The notes under the pieces were generated by a model. It made no database searches, was not told the DNA's origin, and saw only the letters and a program-made list of their open reading frames with translations. The translations under genes were made by a program, and so were the position numbers. DNA of 64,000 bases from positions 20,669-84,668 of IMG/VR virus record IMGVR_UViG_3300031746_000007; one strand, given 5' to 3'. The DNA is from a virus. Numbering within the stretch: the first letter of the stretch is position 1; each line of letters opens with the position of its first letter. Of this stretch, positions 25,351-46,373 are shown in pieces.

Positions 25351-26304
25351 CTACAGCCCGATCCCGTCCGCCGCGTTGTCGTCGAAGAGCCCGGCGTCGC
25401 GAATGTACCGGCGCACCATCGTCACCGACCGATGTCCAGTCTGGCCCATGATCGCGCGCTCCGACTTGCCTGCTCGAGCCGCCGTCGTCACGAGCCCGGC
25501 CCGGAGCGAGTGACCGGAGACCTTGGCCGGGTCTAGCCCGGCAGCCTTGGCCGCCGACTTGATCAGGTTCGCGATGTCCTTGCCGTCGAGCCGCAGCCCG
25601 GTCGACTTGCCATGCCTGGTCAGCCCGACGAACAGCGGGCCCGCTACGTCTCCGCGCTCGCCGAGCCACACCGTGACCGCGCGCACCGGGCAGAGCGACC
25701 CGCCGCGCGGGATGCCGACCTTCCGGCCGGCTCCTTCCTGGTCGGTCTTCGACCGCCGCAGCGTCACCGTGAGCCCATCCTCGGACGTCGCCAGGTCGAC
25801 GACGTCGAGCCCTACCAGCTCCGATCGGCGGAACGCACCGGCGAACCCGAGGAGGAGGATCGCGCGATCGCGCGTGCCCTTGAGCCCGGACGGAAGGGTC
25901 GACACCATAGCCCGGAGGTCCGACAGAACGATCGGCGCGACCTGCCGCTGAGCCGTGAGCTTCGTCCGGCGGATGCCTTGAAGCACCGACCGCACCGGTG
26001 CCGACGCTCGAGGAGAAGGATACCCGCCGGCGCGCTGCGCCTCAGAGATCGCGGCGAGAGCCCTCTCGATGGTCGCCACCTTGCGACCGGAATCGGCGAG
26101 CTTGGCAATGTAGACGGCTACGGTCTCCGGCGTCGCCGGCATGAACGAGAGATTGCGCGACCCGCACCACGCCGTGAACGCACCCCAGCTCGTGCGGTAG
26201 GCGCGTCGTGTCGCGTCCGACTTGGCCGCCTTGGCATAGGTGCGTGCCGACTCGAGCGAACGAGCTAGCGCCGCCGGTGCCGCGGGGATGAGGTCAGCAC
26301 CCAT
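25351..26304 (-). CDS. Tyrosine recombinase (Cre-like)
   Basis: RDRAILLLGF.GAFRRSEL, RSKTDQ, HSLRAG, GH.S..MV.RY: complete R-K-H-R-H-Y set; start overlaps the upstream stop. Confidence 0.93.
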   Translation of the reverse strand: MGADLIPAAPAALARSLESARTYAKAAKSDATRRAYRTSWGAFTAWCGSRNLSFMPATPETVAVYIAKLADSGRKVATIERALAAISEAQRAGGYPSPRASAPVRSVLQGIRRTKLTAQRQVAPIVLSDLRAMVSTLPSGLKGTRDRAILLLGFAGAFRRSELVGLDVVDLATSEDGLTVTLRRSKTDQEGAGRKVGIPRGGSLCPVRAVTVWLGERGDVAGPLFVGLTRHGKSTGLRLDGKDIANLIKSAAKAAGLDPAKVSGHSLRAGLVTTAARAGKSERAIMGQTGHRSVTMVRRYIRDAGLFDDNAADGIGL

Positions 26305-26635
26305 AACGCCGCTCCGATTCGCACTCGGCGCGGTACTCGTCATCCTCGGCGCACTTGCCCTCCCAGGCTTCGCGCTCCTCATCGGTCAGAGCCTTCACGT
26401 CGACGACCTTGACCTTGCCGGTGCCGTTGCACTCGTCGCAGGGTCGGTCGTAACCGCCGCGCATGTACTCGGCGAACTCGTCTTCGTCCCAGTCGCGTTC
26501 GCGGTCAGCCTCGGTGATTGCCCCGAGGTACGCACTGCTCTTGCCGTGACCGTCGCAGCTTCCGCAGATCTCCCAACGTGTCGGGAGCACCCGCTCGTTA
26601 CCGTCCGCATCCTCGATCGTGTAGTCCCGCGGCAT
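26294..26635 (-). CDS. Zn-finger (CxxCxGxG) hypothetical protein
   Basis: CGSCDGHG and CDECNGTG. Confidence 0.7.
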   Translation of the reverse strand: MPRDYTIEDADGNERVLPTRWEICGSCDGHGKSSAYLGAITEADRERDWDEDEFAEYMRGGYDRPCDECNGTGKVKVVDVKALTDEEREAWEGKCAEDDEYRAECESERRYGC

Positions 26636-26649
26636 CCTCGCCTCCTTCT

Positions 26650-26934
26650 CTAGTAGTCGCTTCCGAACCGCAACTCGCGCTCGATGTCGAGAGCGTCGGC
26701 GACCTCGTCGCCGAACATCGCGCGGTCTTCTTTCCAGCGGTTGTAGTCGGCGACGCCGGCGTTGTACTCGGCGTTGTCGCGAGCACGCTCGGGGTCACGC
26801 TCCACCGCTTCCGGCTCCGGGCAGCTCGTGTGCCGCGAACCCAGGCAGCGATCCCACATGATCTTCTCGCCAGCTTCGAAGCGCTCGTTGCACTTGCGAC
26901 ACTTGCCGGCGAACTTCGCAGTGATGATTCTCAT
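26650..26934 (-). CDS. Hypothetical Zn-binding protein
   Basis: AKFAGKCRKC..GEKI.W....H..C; first gene after repeat copy 1. Confidence 0.7.
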   Translation of the reverse strand: MRIITAKFAGKCRKCNERFEAGEKIMWDRCLGSRHTSCPEPEAVERDPERARDNAEYNAGVADYNRWKEDRAMFGDEVADALDIERELRFGSDY

Positions 26935-26955
26935 CGCCTTGCCTCCTCGATTGTC

Positions 26956-26991
26956 AGCTTCTCATTCTCCCCGTCACTTGTCAAGAGAATT
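26956..26991 (-). promoter_or_regulatory. Cassette promoter repeat 1
   Basis: AATTCTC TTGACA agtgacggg GAGAATGA GAAGCT. Confidence 0.85.
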
Positions 26992-27009
26992 CGTACCCCC
27001 GTATCCTGG

Positions 27010-27474
27010 TCACCGACCGGAGCCGCGGAGCATCGACTTCTCGGCGAAGCTCATCGTTCGCTCACCGGCGACGATCACGTGGTCGAGCACCGGGATCCCG
27101 AGAATCTTGCCGGCGTCGACCAGCCGACCGGTCAGCGCGACATCTTCGGCACTCGGTGTCGGGTCGCCTGAAGGATGGTTGTGCACGACGATCACGGCGG
27201 AGGCACCGAGCAGCACCGCGGTTCGAAACACCGTCCGCGGGTCGACCCCGACCCCGTCGATGCTGCCGCGAGCGACCTCGACGTAGCCGAGCACCCGGTT
27301 CTTGACGTCGAGCGGGAAGGCGAGAAACACCTCCTGCTCTTCACCCTCGAGCAGAGCCGCCGCGATGCTCGCCGCGTCCCGGGGCTCGCGTATCGGGGTC
27401 TCGTAGTCGACTTTGGAGTCAGCCGCCACCGGCACCCGGCGCGACCGCAGCTCGAGCTTCTTGACCGTCTTCAT
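27010..27474 (-). CDS. radC: RadC-like JAB-domain protein
   Basis: QEVF...LD.KNR...GS.....VDPR.VF..A....A..VIVVHNHPSGDPTPS.ED...LDHVI. Confidence 0.9.
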   Translation of the reverse strand: MKTVKKLELRSRRVPVAADSKVDYETPIREPRDAASIAAALLEGEEQEVFLAFPLDVKNRVLGYVEVARGSIDGVGVDPRTVFRTAVLLGASAVIVVHNHPSGDPTPSAEDVALTGRLVDAGKILGIPVLDHVIVAGERTMSFAEKSMLRGSGR

Positions 27475-27484
27475 GTCTCCTCCT

Positions 27485-27718
27485 TCAGCCACCGGCCCCG
27501 TAGGTCGTCTCGGCGAGAGCCGAGCCGGCGTCGATGGTCTCCTCGAAAGTCCGGGCTTCCTCGAGCCAGTCCCAGGTCTCGAGAGCCTTGGCGAAGGCGG
27601 CGCCGACCGGACACTCAGCCTTGTGGGGTTCGTGGGTGTCCCAGGAACCGCAGGAGCAGCGGCGACCGCGAAGCGTCGCTTTCATCAGCCGGCGAAGCAC
27701 TGAAGCGCGAGTCATCAT
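27485..27718 (-). CDS. Hypothetical protein
   Basis: AGGAGG RBS after repeat 2. Confidence 0.65.
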   Translation of the reverse strand: MMTRASVLRRLMKATLRGRRCSCGSWDTHEPHKAECPVGAAFAKALETWDWLEEARTFEETIDAGSALAETTYGAGG

Positions 27719-27737
27719 GGCGACCTCCTACGCTCAG

Positions 27738-27772
27738 AGTGTCTCATTATCCTGTACAGTTGTCAATAGAAT
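27738..27772 (-). promoter_or_regulatory. Cassette promoter repeat 2
   Basis: ATTCTA TTGACA actgtacag GATAATGA GACACT. Confidence 0.85.
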
Positions 27773-27826
27773 ATGGCACACCGCGCCCCCTGTTTTTTCT
27801 TAGTGTTTTCGTGCTAGATCTCACAC

Positions 27827-28963
27827 ATGGCCGACTTTCGCGAAGAGCTTCACCCGCGGGACCGTGGCAGATTCGCTGAAAAAGCGCGCGAAGCCGAAGC
27901 ACTTGCCACCCTCGCCGACATCAAACACACCCGGGACGCTCGCGAGCGCTCCGCCTCCCACCCCATCATGCGCGAGCCGACGACCCCGCCCCCGGGCGAG
28001 CGAGCGGCCTACGCGCCCGACATCCGACGCGACGACAACGATGACGGCATCGCCGACCGCTCTCGTGTCGGTCTCGGCGGGCGCGACACGTGCCCTCCCG
28101 GCGAGATCCCTCGCCTCCCGAACCTCACCGAGCGCGAGCGCGAGGTCGAGTCTCACTTCGCCGACGCATACGAGCGCGACCCACAGGCCAAGGTCGACGA
28201 GTACCGCGCCACCGTGAAGAACAACGTCTTCAACACCGACGACGCGAAGATGCTTTCGCCCGACTACAACCCTCCGAAGGAACTGGGCTACTCACGCGAC
28301 GCGATCAATGACATGCGCTCGCAGAACAACGTGCTCGTGCACCAGACCGCGAACGCGATCGCGAAGACCGCGTTCCTGCAACGTCTCGACGAGCTGCCCG
28401 CCGGCTCGAGCGTGCTCGTCACTGCCGGCGGCTGCGCGGCTGGCAAGGGCTACGCGATCGGACACGTCGAGCAGGCCAAAGCGCTCGAGAACATCGTGGG
28501 CGCAACCTGGGATGCGGCCGGCGAGCAGAACAGCACCGAGAACCCCTGGATCCTCGACGAGTGCCGAGCCCGTGGGCTCAAACCGATCTACACCTTCGTC
28601 GACGCCGACCCGCTCGCACGCTGGTCGAGCGACCATCCGCACGGGGTCATCGAGCGCGCCGCCGGCAAAGGTCGCATGGTCGACGCCCGGCTCTTCGCTG
28701 ACAGCTACGCCGAGGGGTCGAAGAACTTCGCCGCCTTTCACGCCGCCCACAAAGACGACGCCGACGTCGGCTTCATCCTGATCGACGCGCGCACCGACTC
28801 CGCTACCCCGCGCCTGCTCGAGAACTTCCCCGAGGTCGCGCTGCGCGCTGACTCCGACGAGATCTATGCGCAGGCGTCCCGCATCGTCGACGAGAAGCTC
28901 GACCTGAACCCGGCGATCCGCCGCGGCGCTACGGTCGGACGCAGGATCTGGGGAGCCCCGTGA
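27827..28963 (+). CDS. Zeta-toxin-like P-loop kinase with N-terminal HPRD.GRF motif
   Basis: VLVTAGGCAAGKG Walker A; IERA..KGRMV; N-terminus FREELHPRDRGRF. Confidence 0.7.
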   Translation: MADFREELHPRDRGRFAEKAREAEALATLADIKHTRDARERSASHPIMREPTTPPPGERAAYAPDIRRDDNDDGIADRSRVGLGGRDTCPPGEIPRLPNLTEREREVESHFADAYERDPQAKVDEYRATVKNNVFNTDDAKMLSPDYNPPKELGYSRDAINDMRSQNNVLVHQTANAIAKTAFLQRLDELPAGSSVLVTAGGCAAGKGYAIGHVEQAKALENIVGATWDAAGEQNSTENPWILDECRARGLKPIYTFVDADPLARWSSDHPHGVIERAAGKGRMVDARLFADSYAEGSKNFAAFHAAHKDDADVGFILIDARTDSATPRLLENFPEVALRADSDEIYAQASRIVDEKLDLNPAIRRGATVGRRIWGAP

Positions 28964-30267
28964 GCCCGGCCGCTCGCGAAGGTCTCGTCGCCGTCGAGCG
29001 GGAAGTGTCGCGCTCCACAGGCGAGACCCACACGCAGCGCTTTTGGGTACGGCGCGAAGATCTGAAAGACACCGTGCGCGCCGACCCCCGCCTTCGTGTG
29101 GTCGCGAGCAGCAACGCTCCCAACCTCACAAAGCTCACCGCTAGCGAGCGCAAACGAACATCATGGGACCGGGCCCCACCCATCGTCAAATCGGCGGCCC
29201 GCTCTCTGCTTCAAGATGCCGGCGGTTTGTCGGCAGCGCTCGAGGCGATTCAGAACTCCAAAAAAGACGACCTGCTCATCGACCCGGTATCCAAACAACC
29301 GACGACAGCCCTTCGTGTTCGCAACGCGCTCGAGGCACTGCGCCCGCAACCCCTCCCCAAAAACGAGGAGTATGTCACCGTTCACCACGCCACGGACGCC
29401 GCGAGCGCGGCGACGATCTTGAAGGACGGGCTCATCCCCGAACTGAAGCCCCACACGCTCGCCTCCGAGCGCTACGAAAAAGGCGAGGCTGCCACCTTCT
29501 CCCCGGGCTCCGGGCTGTCCCGCGGCACCTACGTCGCCGAGCCGGGCAAAGCCGAGAGCTACGGGCGGGTCGTGCTCGAGCTGAAGATCCCGAAGTCCTA
29601 TCTCGAGGTCTCTCCCGAGCAGACCACCCTCGGTGTCACCGACGCCGGCGAGTCTCTGAAAACTCACGACGGTGCGGTCATCACCAAACCGATCCCGCCA
29701 TCCGCCATCCGCGACGTGGCGGCGCCGCGATTCACCTTCGAAAAGCCGCTGCCGGCCGGGATACACGAGCCGGTTGCTGCCGCCCTGACCACCCTTCTCG
29801 ACACCTACCCGGAGATCAGCGGTCTCAAGATCAACATGAGCGAGCTGTCCGGCACTGGCGTCATGGCGCTAGGCGGGAAGACCAGCATCACCCTCAATAC
29901 CCAGATCTGGGATGACCCCGCCAAGCTCGCCGAGCATGAGAAAGCGTGGACCGGTCTAGTCATCGACGCCACCCCCGCCGGGACCGTGGTGCACGAGGTC
30001 GGTCACGTGATGTCGAAGTACGTTCACGATCAGCTCGGAGACGACGACTTCGATCGCATCATCACAAAGCACGCGCCAGACCACGGCTCTCTCTCCTCCC
30101 CCTCAGTGTATGGACAAGAGTCGCCCGGTGAATTCTTGGCCGAATCGTTCTCTGCCCGGCACTTCGGTCACCACGCGAACAGAGACACTGAAGAAATGCA
30201 GCGCTACCTTGCGGCATCGGTCTCCTTGTGGGACGAGCTGATCTCCGAAGCGAGGAAACCCCGATGA
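28960..30267 (+). CDS. Two-domain effector: ART-like domain plus zincin metallopeptidase, shared N-terminal leader
   Basis: VHHATD..ILKDGL / GTYVA / YG.VVLELKIP; VHEVGH...YG.ES..EFLAESF. Confidence 0.65.
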   Translation: MSPAAREGLVAVEREVSRSTGETHTQRFWVRREDLKDTVRADPRLRVVASSNAPNLTKLTASERKRTSWDRAPPIVKSAARSLLQDAGGLSAALEAIQNSKKDDLLIDPVSKQPTTALRVRNALEALRPQPLPKNEEYVTVHHATDAASAATILKDGLIPELKPHTLASERYEKGEAATFSPGSGLSRGTYVAEPGKAESYGRVVLELKIPKSYLEVSPEQTTLGVTDAGESLKTHDGAVITKPIPPSAIRDVAAPRFTFEKPLPAGIHEPVAAALTTLLDTYPEISGLKINMSELSGTGVMALGGKTSITLNTQIWDDPAKLAEHEKAWTGLVIDATPAGTVVHEVGHVMSKYVHDQLGDDDFDRIITKHAPDHGSLSSPSVYGQESPGEFLAESFSARHFGHHANRDTEEMQRYLAASVSLWDELISEARKPR

Positions 30268-30521
30268 TCCCCGTCACCCCGCCCCCGCACCTCCGCATCA
30301 CCGCCGACCCCGAGCCCGACGACACCGTCGTCAGCGACCCGAAGCAACCGCTCTACGACCTCGCCGAGATCCTCCGTTCGAACCTCGAGAAGAACCTCGC
30401 CGACCCCGAGACCTTCTCGATCGAGCGCGAGCTTCAAGAAGACGCGATCGAACCGAGCCCCGACCTCGGGTTCCCCGTCGAGCTACCCGACCTGAACCCG
30501 GACGGTTCGACGAAGCCCTAA
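30264..30521 (+). CDS. Small acidic Pro-rich protein
   Basis: ATGA overlap with the upstream stop; GAGG RBS. Confidence 0.65.
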   Translation: MIPVTPPPHLRITADPEPDDTVVSDPKQPLYDLAEILRSNLEKNLADPETFSIERELQEDAIEPSPDLGFPVELPDLNPDGSTKP

Positions 30522-30811
30522 CCGACGCAGATCACCGTCGCGACTTGGTACCGCTCGCCGTCCGACGACAGCTTGATCGCGACGCCGGAGAAGAACGAGT
30601 CGCCGTGAAAACCGTCGTACCCGAGCAGCGACAGGTCCCCCGTACGCATGAACTGGTCGAGGTGGTACCACGTCCCGCGGTAACACAAGAACCCGTCGAC
30701 GACCTCCTCGGGATCCTGGTAGTCGAACTCCCGCTCGAGCACCGCCGCCGGCACCTCGGTCCTGTAGGCGAACGGCTTCCACTTGTGGTCAGTCTTGATC
30801 AACGTCTTCAC
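30518..30811 (-). CDS. Hypothetical phage protein
   Basis: GGAGG RBS, GTG start; F.YRG.WY.L..FMR...DG...DSFFSG. Confidence 0.75.
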   Translation of the reverse strand: MKTLIKTDHKWKPFAYRTEVPAAVLEREFDYQDPEEVVDGFLCYRGTWYHLDQFMRTGDLSLLGYDGFHGDSFFSGVAIKLSSDGERYQVATVICVG

Positions 30812-31014
30812 GTCAGCACCTCCGCCACGGGCTCGACAGCCTTCCACACGTCGCGAGCCGTCTTGACCGTCTTGAACGCATCGATCGCGAGCGCACCCGC
30901 AGCCCCCGCCGGCGCACCGAACACCATCGCACACACGAACGCGAGCACTGCCGCAGCCGACATCACCTCCGCCGTCCGGAGCCCCTTCCCGCACGCACTC
31001 ACCAGGCTTCCCAC
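30808..31014 (-). CDS. Small membrane protein (start uncertain)
   Basis: Hydrophobic stretch; GAGGAGG RBS after repeat 3. Confidence 0.5.
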   Translation of the reverse strand: MGSLVSACGKGLRTAEVMSAAAVLAFVCAMVFGAPAGAAGALAIDAFKTVKTARDVWKAVEPVAEVLT

Positions 31015-31040
31015 GACCGCACCTCCTCACCACAATCACT

Positions 31041-31075
31041 ATCGTGACATTCTCGCCTTCGTTTGTCAAGAGAAA
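31041..31075 (-). promoter_or_regulatory. Cassette promoter repeat 3
   Basis: TTTCTC TTGACA aacgaaggc GAGAATGT CACGAT. Confidence 0.8.
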
Positions 31076-31082
31076 AGAGACG

Positions 31083-31361
31083 TCAGGCCGACATCACCTT
31101 CGACCCGTTATCCTCCGCGCTACCGGTCTCGTCCCAGTTGACCAGATCGAGCGTCCCATCCTCCCGCACCGCCGGTACCCGGTCGTATGCCTCGCGCGCC
31201 GACGACTCGAATGCCCGAACCAGGAAGTCGAGCACCACCGTCTCGCTCTTGCCCGATTCCTTGACGAGCCAGTCGACCCAATCCTTTCGGATCCGCACCT
31301 CGACCCGCCGGGTCGTTCTCACGACCCCGTCCTTGCTCATCGTCCACTTCACTCGAGCCAT
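31083..31361 (-). CDS. Hypothetical protein (RHH-like possible)
   Basis: GGAGG RBS; VEVRIRK.W...L...SGKS...V...LV. Confidence 0.65.
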   Translation of the reverse strand: MARVKWTMSKDGVVRTTRRVEVRIRKDWVDWLVKESGKSETVVLDFLVRAFESSAREAYDRVPAVREDGTLDLVNWDETGSAEDNGSKVMSA

Positions 31362-31364
31362 CGT

Positions 31365-31694
31365 TCAGCCCTCCTCCGCCATCCGCCGGCGAGCCGCGTG
31401 GAGCGCTCCCATCGGCGTCCCCTTCGTGGTGAGCAACCCGACCGACCGGCAGGCTTCGTGAGCCGCGGCGCCGCACGTCGTGCAGGGCTTCCGGCGCATC
31501 CACTCTTCCGGAGCGTACCGAAGAAAGGTCTCGGTGCCGTCCGACCCAACCCGGTACATCTCGAATCGAGTCGTTTTCTTCGACCCCTTGAACCCCTCGA
31601 CCCGCTTCACTTTGAACGTCGCACCCTCGAGCGACGTGAACGTGAAGCACCCGGTCACCTCGAGCCACCCGTAACCCCTCGTTCGCATCGTCAT
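31365..31694 (-). CDS. Hypothetical Zn-finger protein
   Basis: AAGGAGG RBS; PCTTCGA....C......H..R. Confidence 0.65.
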   Translation of the reverse strand: MTMRTRGYGWLEVTGCFTFTSLEGATFKVKRVEGFKGSKKTTRFEMYRVGSDGTETFLRYAPEEWMRRKPCTTCGAAAHEACRSVGLLTTKGTPMGALHAARRRMAEEG

Positions 31695-31705
31695 CGCACC
31701 CTCCT

Positions 31706-31882
31706 TCAAGCGGCCTTCTTCACCGGCTCCGCGTCCCCGTAGCAGGGGAGGTCGCAGAGATCTTCCGCCGCGTGTTTCCAGCAGTACCAGCTGCCCTTCT
31801 CAGCCCGGCAATCGCAACCGGGGTGCCCGCAGCTCGGTGCCCCAACCATCCGGAGCCCGCTCTTCTTCGTTCCTTTCTTCAT
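31706..31882 (-). CDS. Small Cys-rich protein
   Basis: C..PGC...A..GS.YC.KH; AAGGAGG RBS. Confidence 0.65.
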   Translation of the reverse strand: MKKGTKKSGLRMVGAPSCGHPGCDCRAEKGSWYCWKHAAEDLCDLPCYGDAEPVKKAA

Positions 31883-31906
31883 CGCGAGCCTCCTTCCCAC
31901 GATGCA

Positions 31907-31941
31907 AGTGTCTCATTATCCCGTACGAATGGCAATAGAAA
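31907..31941 (-). promoter_or_regulatory. Cassette promoter repeat 4 (TTGCCA variant)
   Basis: TTTCTA TTGCCA ttcgtacgg GATAATGA GACACT. Confidence 0.75.
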
Positions 31942-31976
31942 ACGACAAGCCGCGGTCGATTCTTTGACGCTGTGCG

Positions 31977-32276
31977 TCAGGCAGCCGCAGCGGTGAAGCC
32001 ACACACCCCGGCAGTCGAATCACCCATCCCGAGCATCGCAGCCGCGGCAGTCTCGGCAGCCTCGGCGGCAGCCACCGCAGCCTCGGCCGCCTTCTTGGCG
32101 ACGGCGAGCATGGCGGCGACCGCATACTTGGCTTTGTCCGAGCCGTCCGACTCCTCGGCAGCGGTGCCGGCGGCATCCGCGGCGAACGCCGAAGCCGACG
32201 ACGACTCGCGAGCGATGTAGGCCAGGGCTTTCATCGCCTCACCCATCGACGATCCGCTCTTCTTCTTGCCCGCCAT
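31977..32276 (-). CDS. Ala-rich hypothetical protein
   Basis: AAGGAGG RBS after repeat 5. Confidence 0.6.
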   Translation of the reverse strand: MAGKKKSGSSMGEAMKALAYIARESSSASAFAADAAGTAAEESDGSDKAKYAVAAMLAVAKKAAEAAVAAAEAAETAAAAMLGMGDSTAGVCGFTAAAA

Positions 32277-32299
32277 GACACCCTCCTTCCTACAGGCAG

Positions 32300-32335
32300 A
32301 GTGTCTCATTCTCCCGTACGATTGTCAAGAGAATT
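32300..32335 (-). promoter_or_regulatory. Cassette promoter repeat 5
   Basis: AATTCTC TTGACA atcgtacgg GAGAATGA GACACT; overlaps upstream TAA. Confidence 0.9.
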
Positions 32336-32609: not shown

Positions 32610-32619
32610 CGCACCCTCC

Positions 32620-33105: not shown

Positions 33106-33113
33106 ACCCTCCT

Positions 33114-38463: not shown

Positions 38464-38496
38464 CGCAGGCTCCTTTCCGTTTCTCCCCACGATCGG

Positions 38497-38531: not shown

Positions 38532-38547
38532 AGAGACACGAATCGAC

Positions 38548-38566
38548 CGGGCTCGAGCGGAGCCCG
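38548..38566 (-). terminator. Possible terminator hairpin after the GNAT/partner pair
   Basis: CGGGCTC-N5-GAGCCCG; T-rich run only further downstream. Confidence 0.35.
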
Positions 38567-38568
38567 CG

Positions 38569-39722: not shown

Positions 39723-39736
39723 GCTCGCAACCTACC

Positions 39737-40030
39737 TCACTCCGACTCGATCGGCCAGAGCCCGAAGTCCCCGTCGCGCCAGCCCCAGCTCGCGCCCTCG
39801 ACCGGCACGCACTGCTCGAGCAGCTCGCACGCCTCATCCTCTTCGTGAGCGTCGTCGCTCATGTCGTCTCGCAGCGCCGCCGACAGCGCGCGCACCTCGT
39901 CCTGGTGACCCGCCATCGCACAGAACGCCGCGAGCGCATCCGCGCATCGCCGGCGCGTGTGCTCGTGCCCGAGCGCCCCGTCTCCGAAACACCCGCAATC
40001 CTCTAACCCGAGCTTCGTCCACCCTGCCAT
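39737..40030 (-). CDS. Hypothetical protein
   Basis: GAGGAGG RBS; WGW.DGDFGLW. Confidence 0.7.
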   Translation of the reverse strand: MAGWTKLGLEDCGCFGDGALGHEHTRRRCADALAAFCAMAGHQDEVRALSAALRDDMSDDAHEEDEACELLEQCVPVEGASWGWRDGDFGLWPIESE

Positions 40031-40040
40031 GTTGCCCTCC

Positions 40041-40334
40041 TCACAAGCATCCGTCGTCATAGTGGTCTTCGTCGAGCCCGGCCGCCTTCGACGTCTCCGG
40101 CTCCTCCGGGAAAAGCTCCGCCGCCGTGCAGCCATCCCACGTGATCTTCGCGTCGCCGTACGCGCCCACCGCGTAGCCGAACGTCGCACTGATGTCGGGG
40201 TGCGGTCCGACGTACCGGTGAGCGAACTTGCGCGCACCCTCGAGCGTCTTGAACTTGCCCCGCTTGTGGTAGTGGTCGATCGTCGTCAGCCGCACCACGA
40301 TCTCCCTGCCCCCGGTCCCCTTCGTCTCGCTCAC
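40041..40334 (-). CDS. Hypothetical phage protein
   Basis: FKTLEGARKFA...VG.HP.I....YAV..YG. Confidence 0.7.
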   Translation of the reverse strand: MSETKGTGGREIVVRLTTIDHYHKRGKFKTLEGARKFAHRYVGPHPDISATFGYAVGAYGDAKITWDGCTAAELFPEEPETSKAAGLDEDHYDDGCL

Positions 40335-40335
40335 G

Positions 40336-40593
40336 TTAGACCTCCTTCCATGTCAACCTGTACTCCCAGAACCGACGCACCATCATCCCGGTCCCGCCGA
40401 ACAGCCCGTGCCGATTGTGCTGATGGTCGTACCGCTTGCCCTTGCGAGCCTCGACCCTGCCCTCGGCGACGAGCTTCCGGAGCACCTTGCGAGCCGCGAC
40501 CGGGGTCAGCCCCATCGCCACCGCGACCTCCTTCGTCGGGCACCATGCCCCGGCGCCAGCAAGAAACCCGAGAGCCTTCGTTCGCGCATCCAT
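40336..40593 (-). CDS. Winged-helix DNA-binding protein
   Basis: TKEVAVAMGLT..AARK.LRKLV.EGRVE. Confidence 0.7.
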   Translation of the reverse strand: MDARTKALGFLAGAGAWCPTKEVAVAMGLTPVAARKVLRKLVAEGRVEARKGKRYDHQHNRHGLFGGTGMMVRRFWEYRLTWKEV

Positions 40594-40610
40594 CGCCTCA
40601 CCTCGAGCAT

Positions 40611-40646
40611 AGCGTCTCATTCTCCCGACCGTTTGTCAAGAGAATT
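40611..40646 (-). promoter_or_regulatory. Cassette promoter repeat 14
   Basis: AATTCTC TTGACA aacggtcgg GAGAATGA GACGCT; overlaps upstream TAA. Confidence 0.9.
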
Positions 40647-41145
40647 ATCGATCTTCGACGAGCACGAGGTCGCAGTTGTAGGAATCGAAGGAGAAGAACG
40701 GCACCCCCTCCGCCTTGGCCCGCTCGCGAGCCTCGGACCCGACCGTGTCGATCATGCTGCCGTCCTTGGCGCAGTAGACCCCGTTACCCATCCCGCAGTA
40801 CGCGAAGACGCCGGCCGCGCACGGCACCGGCTTGAGAGGGGTGTTGGCGTGAATCCACCGATCCCCGTAGGGCTTCAGCATGTAGACGTCGCCCGGCTTC
40901 CACACCTTGCGCCGCGCGATCTTCGCCGCTACCGCGTCGAGCTTGGCGAGCATCGCGGCATCGACCGGCTTCAGCTCGCGCATCGCGGTCAGCGCTTTCG
41001 AGACCGCCTCGCTCGTGGCGAGCAGCGCGGAGAGCGCCCGGTGATAGGTCGCCTCGTCGACGAACTTGTCCGAGAGGTACGTGCGCATCGTGCCCTCCTC
41101 GAGCACCGGCACCCCCTTGAGATTGAACAGCACGCGCTCCGTCAT
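40645..41145 (-). CDS. Hypothetical protein
   Basis: AAGGAGG RBS. Confidence 0.7.
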   Translation of the reverse strand: MTERVLFNLKGVPVLEEGTMRTYLSDKFVDEATYHRALSALLATSEAVSKALTAMRELKPVDAAMLAKLDAVAAKIARRKVWKPGDVYMLKPYGDRWIHANTPLKPVPCAAGVFAYCGMGNGVYCAKDGSMIDTVGSEARERAKAEGVPFFSFDSYNCDLVLVEDR

Positions 41146-41168
41146 CGCACCCTCCTTTTGGTTGTCAC

Positions 41169-41504
41169 TCACGACGGGTAGAACCCGAGCACGAACCCGT
41201 TGTAGGGTTCGGCGTTCCAGCCCTCACCGCGCAGCCCGGTCGGGAACGGTCCCGGGGTCGAGTAGTTCCCCAGCTCGCCGGCGCTGATGTCGCTCCCGGC
41301 ACTCACCATCGTCCACTCGAATGGGCCCTCCTCCCAACACACCGACCAGCCCGAGCCCCAGCCGCGCTCCTTCGTCTCGGCCGGCGACCAGAGCACCGCG
41401 CCCCGCGCGTCCCAGGTCTCCGTGAGCCACGTGTGGAACCTCTTCGCCGCAGCCGCCGGCGTCTTCGCCTCGAGCACCTTCGCCGCTGTCACCTTCACTG
41501 GCAT
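41169..41504 (-). CDS. Hypothetical phage protein
   Basis: W.V.WEEGPFEW...AEPYNGFVL.FY. Confidence 0.75.
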   Translation of the reverse strand: MPVKVTAAKVLEAKTPAAAAKRFHTWLTETWDARGAVLWSPAETKERGWGSGWSVCWEEGPFEWTMVSAGSDISAGELGNYSTPGPFPTGLRGEGWNAEPYNGFVLGFYPS

Positions 41505-41514
41505 CGCACCCTCC

Positions 41515-41772
41515 TCAAGCCGTCGCCGGCTTCATTGTGAGCCCCGCACACTTCCAACCGTGGTACTGAGCGGGGGTGGTCGCGATCAACTTCGTCCCGT
41601 GGCGCTTCGTGATCAGCGTCCCGTCGTGGCCGAAGAACAAGAACAAGGGCAGCGTCGCATCCTCGGCGAGCTTGCCGAACATCGACTCGTCGAGCAGCAA
41701 CTCAAACGCCGCGGCAGCCTTGGCCGCCTTCAACGCCCACATCGCCTTCATCCGCTTGGCCGTCTTCGACAT
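41515..41772 (-). CDS. Hypothetical protein
   Basis: GAGGAGG RBS after repeat 15. Confidence 0.65.
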   Translation of the reverse strand: MSKTAKRMKAMWALKAAKAAAAFELLLDESMFGKLAEDATLPLFLFFGHDGTLITKRHGTKLIATTPAQYHGWKCAGLTMKPATA

Positions 41773-41796
41773 CCCGCACCTCCTCGCTACATGAGG

Positions 41797-41831
41797 AGTG
41801 TCTCATTCTCTGAGCCGAGTGTCAAGAGAAT
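41797..41831 (-). promoter_or_regulatory. Cassette promoter repeat 15
   Basis: ATTCTC TTGACA ctcggctca GAGAATGA GACACT; upstream ORF stops at the TGA inside TTGACA. Confidence 0.9.
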
Positions 41832-42031
41832 AGTGGCGTCAGTCGGCCCGAGACGCGCACCAGAAGATTCGCCTTGTACGCGAGCGGTGTCGGCGTGCCG
41901 CAGTGCCCGTCCCACACGACATAGACCGTGTCGGCGCAGAGACTCTTGACCGTGCCGAGATTGCCGAAGTCGTGGTCGACGTCGACCGACTGCGTCACCC
42001 GATCCCCTACCAGCATGTTCGTGTTCGCCAC
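41822..42031 (-). CDS. Small SH3/KOW-like protein
   Basis: VGDRV......GTV.......V.WD; GAGGAGG RBS. Confidence 0.6.
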   Translation of the reverse strand: MANTNMLVGDRVTQSVDVDHDFGNLGTVKSLCADTVYVVWDGHCGTPTPLAYKANLLVRVSGRLTPLFS

Positions 42032-42041
42032 GTTGCCCTCC

Positions 42042-42554
42042 TCACTCTTCGATCCGGGCCGGCGCCTTGTTGCTGCCGCGGCACTTTCGAGTCGACGAGT
42101 ACCGGGCGTAGAACCCGTACCCACCGCGGTCAGGCTCGTCGTGACTCGGGACCTTGCCGCGCTTCACCTCGAGCGCCGCGCCACAGACCTTGCAGATCCC
42201 GACCGGCGGCACCTCGGTCTCGACCGAGCCCTCGGGAGCCGGCCGCGCCGTGATGTAGAGGTAACCGTAGCTCGCGTTCGTGGAGCACGTGAACTCTACC
42301 CCGCCGATGACGACCGCTTCGACGTCAGCCCTCGAGGGTTCGAACCGGTCCTTGGCCCAGCGGATGAACTTCCGGAGCGGTCCCGCGTTCATCTTCTCGC
42401 GGAATGCCTTGCGATCCTCCTCGGTGCCGACCATGTCCTGACGGTCCGGCAGGAGATCGACGACGAGCCCCGTGTAGATGGCGCGTGCGCCCCACAGCAC
42501 CGGCGCCTCGACCCCGGCGCTCTTCAACCCGAATGCCAACTCGCTCGACTTCAT
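42042..42554 (-). CDS. Hypothetical protein
   Basis: GGAGGAGG RBS; C-terminal CKVC...H...C.GS. Confidence 0.7.
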   Translation of the reverse strand: MKSSELAFGLKSAGVEAPVLWGARAIYTGLVVDLLPDRQDMVGTEEDRKAFREKMNAGPLRKFIRWAKDRFEPSRADVEAVVIGGVEFTCSTNASYGYLYITARPAPEGSVETEVPPVGICKVCGAALEVKRGKVPSHDEPDRGGYGFYARYSSTRKCRGSNKAPARIEE

Positions 42555-42570
42555 TTGCTCTCCTCCTCCG

Positions 42571-42669
42571 TTAGCGAACCGTCATCGGCTTCATCGCCGT
42601 CTCATCCGGCGACGCCGGGAACAACAGACAACCGAGCAGCAACCCCAGAACCAGAACCATCGCGCTCAT
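42571..42669 (-). CDS. 32-aa membrane peptide (not in ORF track)
   Basis: MSAMVLVLGLLLGCLLFPASPDETAMKPMTVR; GGAGG RBS after repeat 16. Confidence 0.55.
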   Translation of the reverse strand: MSAMVLVLGLLLGCLLFPASPDETAMKPMTVR

Positions 42670-42690
42670 CGTGACCTCCCTTCGATTGTC

Positions 42691-42726
42691 ATCGTCTCAT
42701 TCTCTCGTACGCTTGTCAAGAGAATT
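42691..42726 (-). promoter_or_regulatory. Cassette promoter repeat 16
   Basis: AATTCTC TTGACA agcgtacga GAGAATGA GACGAT. Confidence 0.9.
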
Positions 42727-42732
42727 CGACGG

Positions 42733-42918
42733 TCACTCCGCCGAGCCGGCGTCGACCGTGCAGCCGCACCGGGCGCACTTGACCGACCAGTAGCTCTTGA
42801 CCCAGGCCATGCCGCGGAGCACCCAGGTCGTGAAGCACGTCGCCTCCGCGCAGCCGCAGCGCTCGCACTCCCCGATCTCGCAGCTCGCCTCCGTCACCCT
42901 CGTCGTTCTCTCTGGCAT
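42733..42918 (-). CDS. Small Zn-ribbon protein
   Basis: CERCG...CARCG; AAGGAGG RBS. Confidence 0.6.
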   Translation of the reverse strand: MPERTTRVTEASCEIGECERCGCAEATCFTTWVLRGMAWVKSYWSVKCARCGCTVDAGSAE

Positions 42919-42929
42919 CGTGACCTCCT

Positions 42930-43166
42930 TCACTTCTTCGTGAGCCCCAACTCGTACGCGAGATCCTCGAGAGTGTCGCCGTACTCGGTCGGCTTCCCCG
43001 GCGCTTCGGCTTTCCAGGCCCAGCGCGACTCTGGGAGACACCACTTGTGGCGCCCGACCTTGTAGACCGTGCCGTCCGGCCCGGTCGCCTCGTACTTCGG
43101 ACCGTAGTCGAGACCGGGGACGAACCCCGGCAGCTTCCGAAACAGTGCCATCATCGCCTTCGTCAT
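42930..43166 (-). CDS. Hypothetical protein
   Basis: GGAGG RBS. Confidence 0.65.
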   Translation of the reverse strand: MTKAMMALFRKLPGFVPGLDYGPKYEATGPDGTVYKVGRHKWCLPESRWAWKAEAPGKPTEYGDTLEDLAYELGLTKK

Positions 43167-43177
43167 CGCCGTCCCTC

Positions 43178-43426
43178 CTACTTCAACCCGAGTCGCTTGG
43201 CCGCTTTCGCGAGCGTCGTCAGGCGATGCCCGCCGCGGAAGCAGCGAAAGACCTTGCCGTCGTTCCGAACGAAGAACCGCGCTCGCGCGCGACCCTTGCC
43301 GGTCGAGAGCAGCACCCCGCCAGTCAACCAGTCGTTGATGTCGATGCCTTCCCCGTGATGCCGCGCCAGGCTCGCCGCCATCAGCAACTTTCCGGCCCCC
43401 GTCCTGCTCGTCAGTGCCAGTGCCAT
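43178..43426 (-). CDS. Hypothetical basic protein
   Basis: AAGGAG RBS after repeat 17. Confidence 0.6.
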   Translation of the reverse strand: MALALTSRTGAGKLLMAASLARHHGEGIDINDWLTGGVLLSTGKGRARARFFVRNDGKVFRCFRGGHRLTTLAKAAKRLGLK

Positions 43427-43455
43427 GACCGCCGCTCCTTTCACCCTACGATCGG

Positions 43456-43491
43456 AGTGTCTCATTCTCCCTTCCGACTGTCAAGAGAATT
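43456..43491 (-). promoter_or_regulatory. Cassette promoter repeat 17
   Basis: AATTCTC TTGACA gtcggaagg GAGAATGA GACACT. Confidence 0.9.
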
Positions 43492-43503
43492 CGACAGGTC
43501 CCG

Positions 43504-43944
43504 CTAGACCTTGAACTTCTTGTCGGCCCGGACTCGAGCCTCGGCGCCGTTCGGGAGAGTGAAGACGTTCGCCGGGTGACACACGAGGTGGTAGCGGTGC
43601 TCCTTGCTGTGCTCGTCGTACAGTGTCGCGTGCTCGTGCTCACACTCGGGGTCGATGCACTCCCCGCCTGCGACATCCGGCAGCTCCACCGTGCCGACGC
43701 TCCGCTTGGCGCCTTTCCAGGGGTTCCCGGGAGCCGGCGGCTTGACCGCCCGCTCGCGCTCGAGCTTCTTCAGACGCGCGATCTCGACCATCGCCGCCGT
43801 ATCTTTGAAGCCGAGATCCTCCGCCGTGCAGTTCTTACGCAACCCGCACCCGCAGGCGCAGGTCTTACCGTGCTGATGCTGCTCGGTCTCGTGCCGGGGC
43901 AACCCGCCCGGATGGTACAACGTGAACAAACTGAATGCCGCCAT
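43504..43944 (-). CDS. Hypothetical Cys/His-rich protein
   Basis: GAGGAGG RBS; CACGCG. Confidence 0.65.
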   Translation of the reverse strand: MAAFSLFTLYHPGGLPRHETEQHQHGKTCACGCGLRKNCTAEDLGFKDTAAMVEIARLKKLERERAVKPPAPGNPWKGAKRSVGTVELPDVAGGECIDPECEHEHATLYDEHSKEHRYHLVCHPANVFTLPNGAEARVRADKKFKV

Positions 43945-43958
43945 GACCCCTCCTCGGC

Positions 43959-44105
43959 TCACGCCCACGCGCAAGCCAAAAATGTCGTTCGCTCCCCCGT
44001 GAGAACCGCGCGCCAGCAACGCCAGTAGCAGCGCCACCCGAATCCTCGCACGATCGCCGTGGCGTCCGTGACGAGGTGCCGGGTCGTGATCACTCCTGAA
44101 AGCAT
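43959..44105 (-). CDS. 48-aa protein (not in ORF track)
   Basis: MLSGVITTRHLVTDATAIVRGFGWRCYWRCWRAVLTGERTTFLACAWA; AAGGAG RBS after repeat 18. Confidence 0.65.
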   Translation of the reverse strand: MLSGVITTRHLVTDATAIVRGFGWRCYWRCWRAVLTGERTTFLACAWA

Positions 44106-44128
44106 CGCGGGCTCCTTCCCACGATCAG

Positions 44129-44163
44129 AGTGTCTCATTCTCAGGTACGGTTGTCAAGAGAAT
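44129..44163 (-). promoter_or_regulatory. Cassette promoter repeat 18
   Basis: ATTCTC TTGACA accgtacct GAGAATGA GACACT. Confidence 0.9.
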
Positions 44164-44173
44164 ACGACGGGGG

Positions 44174-44452
44174 TCAGCCCTTCTTCTTGATCACGTGCCG
44201 CCGGTAGCAGTCCGACCCGATCGGCCAGTAGCCCATGTACCCGCCGTCGTTCCCGTCGCTGTCGTGGTCACCCCACTCGGCGCCGCCGCGGATGACGACC
44301 GCGGTGTGCGGCCAGGGATCGAGCACGGGCTTGCCGCAGATCGCGCACGGGGTCGCCGCACTGTGAGCGCCCTCGAAATTCTTGTGGTAGCGCTTCCCGC
44401 TGAACGGCTTCACCTTGAACTTCGGAGAAGCCTTGTCGCACGTCTTGCACAT
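44174..44452 (-). CDS. Hypothetical Zn-binding protein
   Basis: PCAICGKP...MG.WPIGSDC. Confidence 0.7.
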   Translation of the reverse strand: MCKTCDKASPKFKVKPFSGKRYHKNFEGAHSAATPCAICGKPVLDPWPHTAVVIRGGAEWGDHDSDGNDGGYMGYWPIGSDCYRRHVIKKKG

Positions 44453-44811
44453 CACCGACCCCCTTCCGGCACCAGCTCGATGTTGTCGCTGTTCGAACCC
44501 TTGGTGATCACGTACCCGCGACCGTCGACGACGAGCACGTCGCCGAGCTTCGCGTCGATGACGTTGCCGGCGGCGCGCTCGCGCGCGATCTCCGCCCCGG
44601 TCCCGCCATAGTTGTCGATGACCGAGCAGAGCGGGAACGCGTACGCCCACGGTCCCGGCACGAGCGGCCCCTGGTGCTCCTGCCGGCCCGACTCGCCTTC
44701 GCGTACGCACCCGACCGCGAACGCCGACACCGAGTAGCCGGCGACCTTCACGCGCGTGTAGTCGAACGGTCGCGCCTTATCGTTGTAGAGCTTCCGAACC
44801 ATCACTCGCAT
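44452..44811 (-). CDS. Hypothetical protein
   Basis: GGAGG RBS; GD...VDG..Y.I. Confidence 0.7.
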   Translation of the reverse strand: MRVMVRKLYNDKARPFDYTRVKVAGYSVSAFAVGCVREGESGRQEHQGPLVPGPWAYAFPLCSVIDNYGGTGAEIARERAAGNVIDAKLGDVLVVDGRGYVITKGSNSDNIELVPEGGR

Positions 44812-45056
44812 GCTGCCTCCTCCTTCGCAGTTCTCGCCTCGACCTTTTCGAGCGCCGCCTCGAGCGCCTTGAGCTTCGCCTCGGCTTCGCGCAGCATCGT
44901 CTTCGACGACTCCGCGAGAATGGCGACGAGCGCTCCGCCGGCGCACGTGCGCTGTTTCTTGATCAGCCGCCGGCTCTCGGCGACCACCTTGCGCCACTCG
45001 GCTACGCGCTCGCGCGCCGCCGCCACCTCACCGCACGTCTTGCACTCACAGCTCAT
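44802..45056 (-). CDS. Hypothetical coiled-coil protein
   Basis: GAGGAGG RBS. Confidence 0.6.
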   Translation of the reverse strand: MSCECKTCGEVAAARERVAEWRKVVAESRRLIKKQRTCAGGALVAILAESSKTMLREAEAKLKALEAALEKVEARTAKEEAACE

Positions 45057-45067
45057 CCCGCACCTCC

Positions 45068-45265
45068 TCACCCGCAGGGGTTCCGATTCCACCATCGTTC
45101 GATCTTCGCCGCGCGCCGCCATGCCGCGTCGAACTCCTCGCGGAGCAACCGCTTCGCTTCCGCGTACCCGGGAGCGCTCGGGCTCAGACTCATCAGCCGA
45201 TCGCGGAGGGATTCGCGGGCCCGCCGCGCCTCCTCCCTTTCAGCTAACGTGTACTTCGCAGGCAC
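45068..45265 (-). CDS. Hypothetical protein
   Basis: AAGGAGG RBS after repeat 19. Confidence 0.6.
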   Translation of the reverse strand: MPAKYTLAEREEARRARESLRDRLMSLSPSAPGYAEAKRLLREEFDAAWRRAAKIERWWNRNPCG

Positions 45266-45289
45266 CGCCGACCTCCTTCCTACACCCGG

Positions 45290-45325
45290 AGTGTCTCATT
45301 CTCAGGTACGGTTGTCAAGAGAATT
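45290..45325 (-). promoter_or_regulatory. Cassette promoter repeat 19
   Basis: AATTCTC TTGACA accgtacct GAGAATGA GACACT; 36 bp identical to copy 18. Confidence 0.9.
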
Positions 45326-45491
45326 CGACCTCGTCGGCAGGGGACACCCAGACCACCCGGAACCCGCGCGCGTGCGCCCACCGCATGACCTCGGCGCGTG
45401 CGGTCGGGATCCGCAAGAACACCCGGCGCCCCTCGCTCAGCGCGTACCCGACCCACCGACCGCCCGACCGCTCGACATAGAGCTTATCCAT
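45315..45491 (-). CDS. Hypothetical protein
   Basis: MDKLYVER...; stop is the TGA of the repeat's TTGACA. Confidence 0.6.
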   Translation of the reverse strand: MDKLYVERSGGRWVGYALSEGRRVFLRIPTARAEVMRWAHARGFRVVWVSPADEVEFS

Positions 45492-46024
45492 CACACCCTC
45501 TCCTTCCGCGGCGTCCCCGCCTTGGTGAGCGTGGCCTGGTAGTCGAGCGCCTTCCGCAGGTTGGCCGCCTTCTCCTCGGCACCCCAGCCGCGCTCGACCG
45601 GCGACCCGTGGCCGCAGACTTTCGTGCTCCGCCCGAGCTTCTCGTGCTCGGTCGTGATGTCCCGGAGGTCGGCCGGCGTCACCACCGTGAACACGTCCCC
45701 GACCTGGGAGGTCCCGCCGCCGCAGCACCGGCTCGGGGTCACGACCTCGACCACCCGAGCGAAGTATTCGAAGGGCTGGCAGCCCATCGTCATCCCGCCC
45801 ACCCGGATGAGGTCGCCCACCTTGACTTCGTCGGCCCGGCACTTGCGCAGGTTGCGCAGGAACTCGGCCGCCGCGCGACCCCGCCGGGTCAGGCGAACGC
45901 CTTTGCCGTGGCAGTCGAAGCACTTGCCGCCGTAGACCGACGTCGGGCCGTAGCGCCCATCGCCCCCGCAGCGCCCGCAGGGCTCGCGTTCGAACTTGTC
46001 CGGGCTGTTGACCACCTCGACCAC
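45491..46024 (-). CDS. Zn-finger (CxxCxGxG) hypothetical protein
   Basis: PCGRCGGDG.Y.....G.CFDCHGKG. Confidence 0.75.
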   Translation of the reverse strand: MVEVVNSPDKFEREPCGRCGGDGRYGPTSVYGGKCFDCHGKGVRLTRRGRAAAEFLRNLRKCRADEVKVGDLIRVGGMTMGCQPFEYFARVVEVVTPSRCCGGGTSQVGDVFTVVTPADLRDITTEHEKLGRSTKVCGHGSPVERGWGAEEKAANLRKALDYQATLTKAGTPRKERV

Positions 46025-46051
46025 GACCGCCTCCTTCGGGCTCCCGCCCCG

Positions 46052-46312
46052 CTAGATCTTCTCGATCTCGACCACCTCGTACCGTGCCACCCGGCGGCTG
46101 GTGTAGCTCCCGAGCTTCAGCTCCGAGAGCGACAGCCCCATCGTGCCGCAGTGCGTCTTGTCGGCGACCACGTACCAGCCGCCGCCGTACCCGAGCGCCT
46201 TGACCTCGAGCACCTTGACACTCCGGCGACCGCGGCCGGCGCCGCTCGAGGCGTAAACCGGCAACCGCTCGACCGTCACCCGGACCGTGTCACCTACCGC
46301 CAGCGTCATCAT
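46052..46312 (-). CDS. Hypothetical protein
   Basis: AAGGAG RBS after repeat 20. Confidence 0.6.
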   Translation of the reverse strand: MMTLAVGDTVRVTVERLPVYASSGAGRGRRSVKVLEVKALGYGGGWYVVADKTHCGTMGLSLSELKLGSYTSRRVARYEVVEIEKI

Positions 46313-46337
46313 CCCGGGCTCCTTTCCCTACGCTCAG

Positions 46338-46373
46338 AGGGTCTCATTCTCCTGTCCGTTTGTCAAGAAGAAT
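46338..46373 (-). promoter_or_regulatory. Cassette promoter repeat 20 (first in transcription order)
   Basis: ATTCTTC TTGACA aacggacag GAGAATGA GACCCT. Confidence 0.85.

Follow-up and report, generated by a model that had tools for sequence, protein, structure and literature searches.

A stretch of phage DNA of 64,000 nucleotides (here called the window), corresponding to bases 20669 to 84668 of the 84,668-bp IMG/VR record IMGVR_UViG_3300031746_000007, carries an array of 20 gene units, each headed by a copy of one repeated element. The G+C content is 64%. IMG/VR classes the record as linear, and CheckV gives it a completeness of 78%, without a terminal repeat; we propose that it derives from an uncultured tailed phage from sediments, with a genome of roughly 85 to 110 kb. 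Genes were called from codon-position G+C together with family searches. The array lies between genes for nucleotide metabolism and replication on one side and a Cre-like tyrosine recombinase gene and the packaging genes on the other. Its units comprise 1 to 5 small minus-strand genes each, 48 in total over ~20 kb, and the recombinase is the last gene of the last unit. The original prediction took the repeats to be possible exchange points of an integron-like array, moved by homologous recombination or by the encoded recombinase.

A search with the pattern TTGMCA-N14-TGN-NANNNT returned exactly 20 matches in the window, all on the minus strand and forming one co-oriented block of 19.4 kb (Table 1); the expectation by chance, from shuffled sequences, was a mean of 0.06 and a maximum of 1. 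Outside these matches, no copy occurs in the 84,668-bp record, save for a weak relative at the leftward promoter of the divergent control region. The pattern scan thus bears out the 20 same-orientation copies first listed, with the correction that they lie on the minus strand, and the single TTGCCA variant is confirmed at copy 17. The earlier description of the element held only in part. The copies are real, but the conserved block is longer than the 35 to 36 bp assigned to it: it extends approximately from (GTCG)AATTCTC through the -10 hexamer and then into one of about three types of leader and ribosome-binding site (RBS). The proposed layout of TTGACA, 17 bp and TGn is right about the 17-bp spacer, which however includes the TGn (14 bp plus TGn); taken literally, it gives 0 matches. 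All 20 copies are intergenic and have the same orientation as the genes. As first noted, an RBS and a start codon follow every copy (20/20), the former being strong and of the AGGAGG type, and the distance from the -10 hexamer to the start codon is 7 to 34 nt (median, 23.5). Several copies have the upstream gene's stop codon inside their AATTCTC edge.

Table 1 Positions of the array, its element copies, and other features of the window
Feature	Position in window	Strand	Remarks
Array	26956-46373	-	20 units headed by putative promoters, 48 small genes
Copy 1	46338-46373	-	Heads genes 46312-46052, 46024-45491, and 45494-45315
Copy 2	45290-45325	-
Copy 3	44129-44164	-	Same as copy 2 from TTCTCTTGACA through -10
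Copy 4	43456-43491	-
Copy 5	42691-42726	-	Leader type GACAATCGA
Copy 6	41797-41832	-
Copy 7	40611-40646	-	Three-way mosaic point
Copy 8	38497-38532	-
Copy 9	37602-37637	-	Within segment 37374-38230 replaced in L174
Copy 10	37340-37375	-	Heads 408-aa phrog_2319 protein 36095-37321; lower break of L174 replacement
Copy 11	36061-36096	-	5'-half donor of chimeric element in L195
Copy 12	35527-35562	-
Copy 13	34815-34850	-	Donor of 3' half and leader of chimeric element in L195
Copy 14	34089-34124	-	~40 bp identical to copy 15; intrinsic-terminator-like hairpin just upstream
Copy 15	33732-33767	-
Copy 16	32300-32335	-	L106 homology begins 25 nt upstream
Copy 17	31907-31942	-	Sole TTGCCA variant
Copy 18	31041-31076	-
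Copy 19	27738-27773	-	Heads gene 27718-27485 and RadC-like JAB gene 27010-27474
Copy 20	26956-26991	-	Heads genes 26934-26650, 26635-26294, and recombinase gene
Three-gene island	27827-30521	+	Inside unit between copies 31041 and 27738; no element in its own orientation
Cre-like tyrosine recombinase	25351-26304/26382	-	343 aa from 26382, 317 aa from ATG 26304
Promoter-like site TTGACT-N17-TAAATG	25303-25331	-	Just past recombinase stop; heads open reading frame 24935-25312
Large terminase	22706-24187	-
Portal	20510-22261	-	Structural genes after it
dNMP (deoxynucleoside monophosphate) kinase	50694-51731	-
Divergent control region	Near 52040 (52020-52090)	Both
Leftward promoter of divergent control region (predicted)	52021-52051	-	TTGACA-N17 layout as in element; TA-type -10
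Replication genes: primase-helicase, Dda-like helicase, exonuclease, DNA polymerase	From 52067	+

Conservation was read from an alignment of 57 distinct copies taken from the window and its metagenome relatives. The invariant columns are the T, T, G, and C of TTGACA; a block AATG, which contains the TG at the extended -10 position; the A at -11; and the T at -7. The second A and the sixth T of the -10 hexamer, which had been singled out at the outset, are thus constant in 20/20 window copies and in 57/57 overall. Two further conserved stretches are AATTCTC, upstream of the -35 box, and GAnAA, within the spacer, and the 9 nt that follow TTGACA vary freely. Position -12 is G in at least 90% of the copies, where sigma-70 promoters have T, and a generic promoter scan reported 0/20 copies because of this G. 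Among the 20 window copies, the roughly three leader types are paired with the spacer types in crossed combinations.

The conserved flanks form a dyad around the -35 box, (GTCnn)ATTCTC-N15-GAGAAT(nnGAC), with arms of 6 bp. Covariation between the arms is absent (76.8% of cells paired, versus 76.3% in shuffles), and most of the 20 copies fold no better than shuffled sequences do, with z-scores mostly near 0. We conclude that the dyad is not a selected hairpin; it may be a protein site. Terminator-like hairpins across the region number 17, against 11.9 ± 3.5 in shuffles, which is no excess, and few of them adjoin an element. Exact scans for the full element gave no match in IMG/VR or in 185,579 genomes.

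The invariant bases are the contacts that a sigma-70 holoenzyme makes at extended -10 promoters whose spacer is 17 bp long, and the element fits a promoter of this type with an unusual G at -12. The conserved pattern thus supports the suggestion that the repeats are host-type promoters heading an early or accessory gene region; the elements would be active as promoters, and early. A search of the record for sigma-factor region 2 found no match to a phage sigma factor. Both promoters of the divergent control region carry the usual TA at -12/-11. In that region two face-to-face -35 boxes form a palindrome, TTGACTTGTCAA; 17 bp after each box comes a TA-type -10, which makes the leftward promoter overlap the rightward one. 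The promoter-like site just past the recombinase stop is probably a decayed copy of the element; a more distant relative, L200, has a recognizable element at the equivalent place. The predicted transcription start of this site (25288-25331) adjoins the ATG at 25294 of the open reading frame that it heads, which was missed by the G+C-based gene caller, and the mRNA of this frame may consequently be leaderless.

Relatives of the array were found by scanning metagenomes with TTGACA-N9-GAKAATGAGAC, which identified the arrayed element in contigs from at least seven samples of two projects. Those from sample Ga0315288 (L174, L182, and L142) cover window positions 30333-53697 at 96 to 99% identity; sample Ga0315283 contributed L181, L187, and L096, and sample Ga0209777 contributed L106, L194, L195, and L163, at 87 to 93% identity. 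More distant forms that carry the element are L200, L193, L199, L156, and L135. All of these are metagenome assemblies, and three public DNA runs (X1 to X3) were examined as assembled contigs, from which any joint with a side of fewer than 30 letters was discarded as a likely repeat artifact. No RNA run is listed as containing the window DNA. Logan contigs of the probable source run end at copies that are identical over at least 31 letters, and contigs of run X1 end at copy 14; contig ends at such long-identical copies are an assembly effect and not biology. Two complete IMG/VR relatives found through the terminase, G001 and G002 (85 and 79 kb), have only the structural module in common with the record, at 30 to 60% protein identity, and contain neither the recombinase nor a comparable repeat; since they share structural genes alone, they are not usable for breakpoint mapping. 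Among 50,697 phage records, megablast and blastn gave no match to the array DNA. The last bases of the record (window 63141-64000) are matched at 99 to 100% by L096 (1-4772) and L166 (128-6572), which extend past the record end by up to 6.4 kb with sequence that matches nothing elsewhere in the record. This extension has four further elements, two per strand, including a back-to-back divergent pair, each facing genes. The record is therefore incomplete, and 20 copies is a lower bound.

Gene content at the array differs widely among these forms. L200 keeps the phrog_2319 gene, an island gene, the RadC gene, and the recombinase as anchors, with 2.4 kb in place of 5.5 kb of array, and in L156 homologues of genes from three different window cassettes stand adjacent. 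Together with the content of G001 and G002, the differences in L200 mark the array region as hyperplastic. Several of the rearrangements fall at elements. In L195, a single element matches copy 11 in its 5' flank and -35 side and copy 13 in its -10 side, leader, and gene; the intervening 1.25 kb, with three genes and one element, is absent. Copy 7 is a three-way mosaic of the window, L174, and L181, with switches at both element edges: the sequences of the window and L174 coincide exactly downstream, starting with the first base of the element, and have no relation upstream of it; those of L174 and L181 coincide exactly upstream and across the element, and have no relation after GAGACGCT, just past the -10. 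L174 lacks the 520-bp gene at 40647-41166, the break being at the element's 5' edge, and the resulting joint (40646/41167) is present also in contigs of runs X2 and X3. Two more indels end at element edges: 18 nt take the place of 45330-45501 in L142 and run X2 (break at the 5' edge of copy 2), and 26 nt take the place of 46024-46339, which contains the first gene, in run X3 (break at the 3' edge of copy 1). Such joints at a single element edge cannot be repeat-induced misassembly. In L174, 1,074 unrelated bases take the place of 37374-38230; one break lies in copy 10, and the other falls exactly on an RBS motif common to several genes. L174 also has a copy with the 5' flank of copy 4 at another position, and in L187 a different element type immediately precedes gene 43944-43504, which in the window lies downstream of copy 3.

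Genes are exchanged at other places as well: single genes within units are gained or lost at RBS-level junctions. Motifs of 10 to 13 nt that include the RBS, such as AGGAGGGTGCGATG, are common to genes inside units (starts 41504, 41145, 32609, 31694, 33102, and 38231) and may be a second class of microhomology junctions. Breakpoints within 15 nt of an element make up 5 of 21, versus 6.6% expected under uniform placement (P = 0.01). A null model in which breaks may fall at any gene junction is fairer than the uniform one, and under it the enrichment at elements is not significant. In close relatives, 7 of 23 informative element junctions have lost their adjacency, compared with 8 of 31 junctions without an element (Fisher P = 0.47), and breaks counted per junction are 11/17 and 12/28, respectively (P = 0.13). 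Many of the breaks at elements could therefore be due to selection for intact genes. Further points tell in the same direction. L194 lacks the gene at 26299-26651, next upstream of the recombinase gene, and insertions are found at 40015-40040 in L174 and at 42556 in L187, in each case with no element at either end; a contig of the L195 type, which joins two copies, could be an assembly chimera if the spacers are identical in that strain. As for the promoter itself, the G at -12 is unusual, its activity and timing are predictions from the sequence, and a bare promoter would need neither the conserved ATTCTC...GAGAAT dyad nor a conserved leader. We conclude that the elements serve as crossover points, and that their preference over other gene junctions is not significant. 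The prediction that the repeats are exchange points is thus partly borne out, by clear cases (the chimera in L195, the mosaic at copy 7, and the edge indels at copies 7, 2, and 1), without a demonstrated preference, and the proposed comparison of breakpoints in relatives places some of them inside or at the edges of repeats and others equally often at gene junctions that have no element. Because breaks are as common at these junctions, the unit of change is the gene and not the promoter-delimited cassette.

We therefore favor, with a probability of about 0.65, an explanation in which the promoter modules of an early region double as homology patches for gene exchange, with the single gene as the unit and the recombinase uninvolved. 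The 20 repeats would be copies of one strong sigma-70-type module, made up of TTGACA, a 17-bp spacer ending in TG, and a -10 of the form GAnnnT, and continuing into a short conserved leader with its RBS. Each module would start transcription of 1 to 5 small accessory genes in a hyperplastic early region. The copies could act as homology patches because they have 35 to 60 bp of near-identical sequence in common; recombination between coinfecting relatives, or between copies in one genome, would then delete, insert, or swap neighboring genes and yield chimeric elements. The short conserved RBS motifs between genes would be further junctions in use, which would make the single gene the evolving unit. 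We infer homologous recombination as the mechanism; it was one of the two movers first proposed, and the pattern of exchanges in relatives fits it.

A simpler possibility is an ordinary early-promoter array with no special role in recombination, in which genes turn over by illegitimate or microhomology recombination at any gene junction and breaks coincide with elements merely because gene boundaries tolerate breaks. The equal frequency of broken adjacencies at element-free junctions is what it would lead one to expect, and the same can be said of the clean single-gene indels with no element at either end and of the break exactly on a common RBS motif. It is nevertheless rather unlikely in our judgment, since the chimeric element at the 1.25-kb deletion junction, the two-edge mosaic at copy 7, and the reticulate combinations of spacers and leaders all need crossovers inside the element. 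The repeat could also be mainly regulatory, either as a promoter read through a polymerase specificity factor that the phage modifies or encodes or as an operator that switches the whole set, with the dyad GTCnnATTCTC/GAGAATnnGAC bound by one phage protein; mycobacteriophage L5, with its many stoperators, offers a comparison. Conservation does extend beyond the sigma-70 contacts, to AATTCTC and GAnAA, and nearly all copies have G at -12, in contrast to the TA of the control region promoters. The regulator could be missing from the record, which is just 78% complete. Against this, the strictly invariant bases are exactly those read by the sigma-70 holoenzyme on an extended -10 promoter, there is no sigma-factor match, and the sole helix-turn-helix match in the record is weak and lies beside the terminase. 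We consider a mainly regulatory repeat improbable, and such a role would be compatible with promoter modules that serve as homology patches rather than exclusive of them.

The integron-like proposal turns on the recombinase, which would bind the repeat dyad, use the variable 9 bp as a crossover core, and excise or insert cassettes site specifically. Its best PDB matches are Cre (E value, 1.7e-15) and XerD/XerC, with no integron integrase among the PDB matches, and its Pfam family is Phage_integrase. The protein is catalytically complete, as had been noted: its Arg, Lys, His, Arg, His (Trp315 in Cre), and Tyr align with the catalytic residues of Cre. A complete tyrosine recombinase thus closes the array, it is present in the element-bearing L194 and L200 and absent from the element-free G001 and G002, and the element contains a 6+6-bp dyad. 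This co-occurrence carries little weight, however, because G001 and G002 differ in the whole nonstructural half of the genome. The arms of the dyad measure 6 bp, with no mirroring beyond, whereas lox and dif sites have 11 to 13 bp, and they do not covary. Breaks fall at the 5' edge, at the 3' edge, or inside the element, with no fixed point; copies occur in both orientations, each heading genes; and genes are not gained and lost as promoter-bounded cassettes, given that single genes turn over inside units and adjacency breaks without an element in 8/31 cases, compared with 7/23 with one. We accordingly find no support for the integron-like plug-in array or for movement of cassettes by the recombinase. 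That a Cre-like recombinase recognizes the repeat dyad and moves promoter-bearing cassettes as circles, in a phage-borne, self-expressing analogue of the integron, is very improbable.

The closest phage relatives of the recombinase are a protein of the Streptomyces plasmid-phage ZL12 (33% identity) and P1 Cre (27%). Of its two possible starts, ATG 26304 is more likely, giving 317 aa; with it, the overlap of the recombinase start with the upstream stop, at 26294, holds as originally described. The gene is kept at the same position in L194, where homology reaches 26298, and in L200. P1 Cre circularizes terminally redundant DNA and resolves dimers, and the placement of the recombinase gene beside packaging genes would recall the P1 arrangement. 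The enzyme most likely acts on the phage DNA itself, in circularization, dimer resolution, or integration, and not in cassette movement. A search for a lox-like site (arms of 11 to 13 bp, spacer of 6 to 8 bp) found none within 24500-26400. The only perfect 13-8-13 palindrome, at 61925-61958, stands in the gap before the DNA polymerase gene with no T run after it, in a record that misses ~22% of the genome; it has the layout of a lox site, but an RNA hairpin in the polymerase leader is an equal possibility. A search of the record for ParA gave no match, and no partition gene was found in this 78% complete record.

The units contain, as first stated, 1 to 5 small unrelated genes, with no paralogues save for one shared 34-aa N-terminal leader. 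Searches of Pfam and PHROGs left most of the 48 genes without a family; what they did assign is a GNAT domain, a RadC-like JAB domain, DUF7717, a phage zinc-binding domain, and phrog_2319. L200 retains homologues of genes 1 and 3 of the plus-strand island, and not of gene 2. The N-terminal leader, ~27 to 34 residues long, occurs in similar form in three otherwise unrelated proteins: a 435-aa protein with a weak zincin/ATLF-like match (28960-30267, plus strand), a GNAT-domain protein (38751-39722, minus strand), and a 316-aa protein among the structural genes (17610-18560, minus strand). Between the first two, the leader is 71% identical; it could be a targeting or packaging signal. The 408-aa protein encoded at 36095-37321 carries the label RecT-like in one 31%-identical phage record. 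This label was not confirmed and was not used as evidence: Pfam gave nothing, PHROGs gave an unnamed family (phrog_2319), the ESM Atlas gave unnamed clusters only, and the single-sequence AlphaFold model, with a predicted local distance difference test score (pLDDT) of 35, was unusable.

Other observations concern the terminase region. A terminase search for the host returned just two metagenome-assembled genomes, one from Myxococcales and one from Gammaproteobacteria; these matches are too weak for a host assignment. The two genes directly upstream of the large terminase (24160-24932) gave below-threshold matches to ParB_N (24418-24666) and HTH_3 (24702-24836), and are candidates for a small terminase or packaging nuclease rather than for plasmid partition. 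In the nearest terminase relative (L001, 641-2083; 84% identity), the alignment covers terminase residues 84 to 493 only, and ~1.4 kb lies between the aligned part and the upstream ParB_N-like gene; an intron, a homing endonuclease, or another insertion may interrupt the 5' part of the terminase gene there.

In the Bacillus phage SPO1, clustered strong host-type promoters in the host-takeover cluster each drive one or a few small early genes. The array is built similarly, of clustered host-type promoters with one or a few small genes each, if the promoter assignment holds, but its copies are far more alike, and over a longer stretch, and exchange at them is documented in relatives. With integrons it has in common small unrelated genes split by one repeated element, beside a tyrosine recombinase gene. 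It departs from them in that a promoter would head every unit, unlike the promoterless cassettes of integrons, which are read from Pc; in that the repeat is 5' of genes, with no attC-like folded imperfect palindrome; and in that the recombinase is Cre-like rather than IntI-like and the units are not units of gain and loss. Compared with P1 Cre/loxP, the recombinase at 343 aa has the length of P1 Cre, its catalytic residues align, and its gene is near packaging genes, but no 13-8-13 lox-like site lies near the gene and no partition gene was found.

The nearest described system is the PeSL (promoter-early stem-loop) of T4-type phages, and the array works similarly. PeSLs, each a strong sigma-70-like early promoter with a stem-loop, are present in ~50 copies per genome, mostly before ORFans in hyperplastic regions (PMC2839356), and are carried by RB49/phi1, T4/PST, and KVP40/nt-1 (Arbiol et al. 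2010, PMC2839356; Comeau et al. 2014, PMC4122927). In phi1/RB49, 10 of 14 differential ORFans border a PeSL (PMC2839356), and recombination between PeSLs has been proposed and, through mini-circles, partly shown (PMC2839356; PMC4122927). The likenesses are several. The array, too, has many copies of what its sequence suggests is a strong sigma-70-like promoter, with a Shine-Dalgarno sequence, before small ORFans in a hyperplastic region, and the preceding gene often has its stop codon within the A/T-rich 5' edge of the element. Close relatives differ by indels and replacements that border elements, with single chimeric elements as the result, and ~10 of 14 events touch an element. Unlike PeSLs, the array has no stem-loop or terminator, its sole symmetry being the 6-bp dyad around -35; it has an extended -10, with G at -12; its 20 copies are gathered in a single co-oriented block; its enrichment of breaks over other gene junctions is not significant; and it belongs to a high-GC (64%) genome of a lineage unrelated to T4. 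Because it lacks the stem-loop, which defines the PeSL, and lies in an unrelated high-GC lineage, we regard it as a variant of the PeSL kind and not as a PeSL itself.

The PeSL principle is that repeated regulatory modules double as landing sites for exchanged genes. The array would extend it beyond the T4-like phages, to a high-GC lineage so far seen only in sediment metagenomes, and to modules that have no terminator hairpin. This supports the view that any strongly conserved promoter-leader module can become an exchange site. The equal break rates at modules and at other gene junctions are a warning against an integron-like reading of such arrays. The ~50 functionally uncharacterized genes of the promoter-headed units are candidates for host-takeover or antidefense functions, and the relatives provide natural variants in which individual genes are present or absent.

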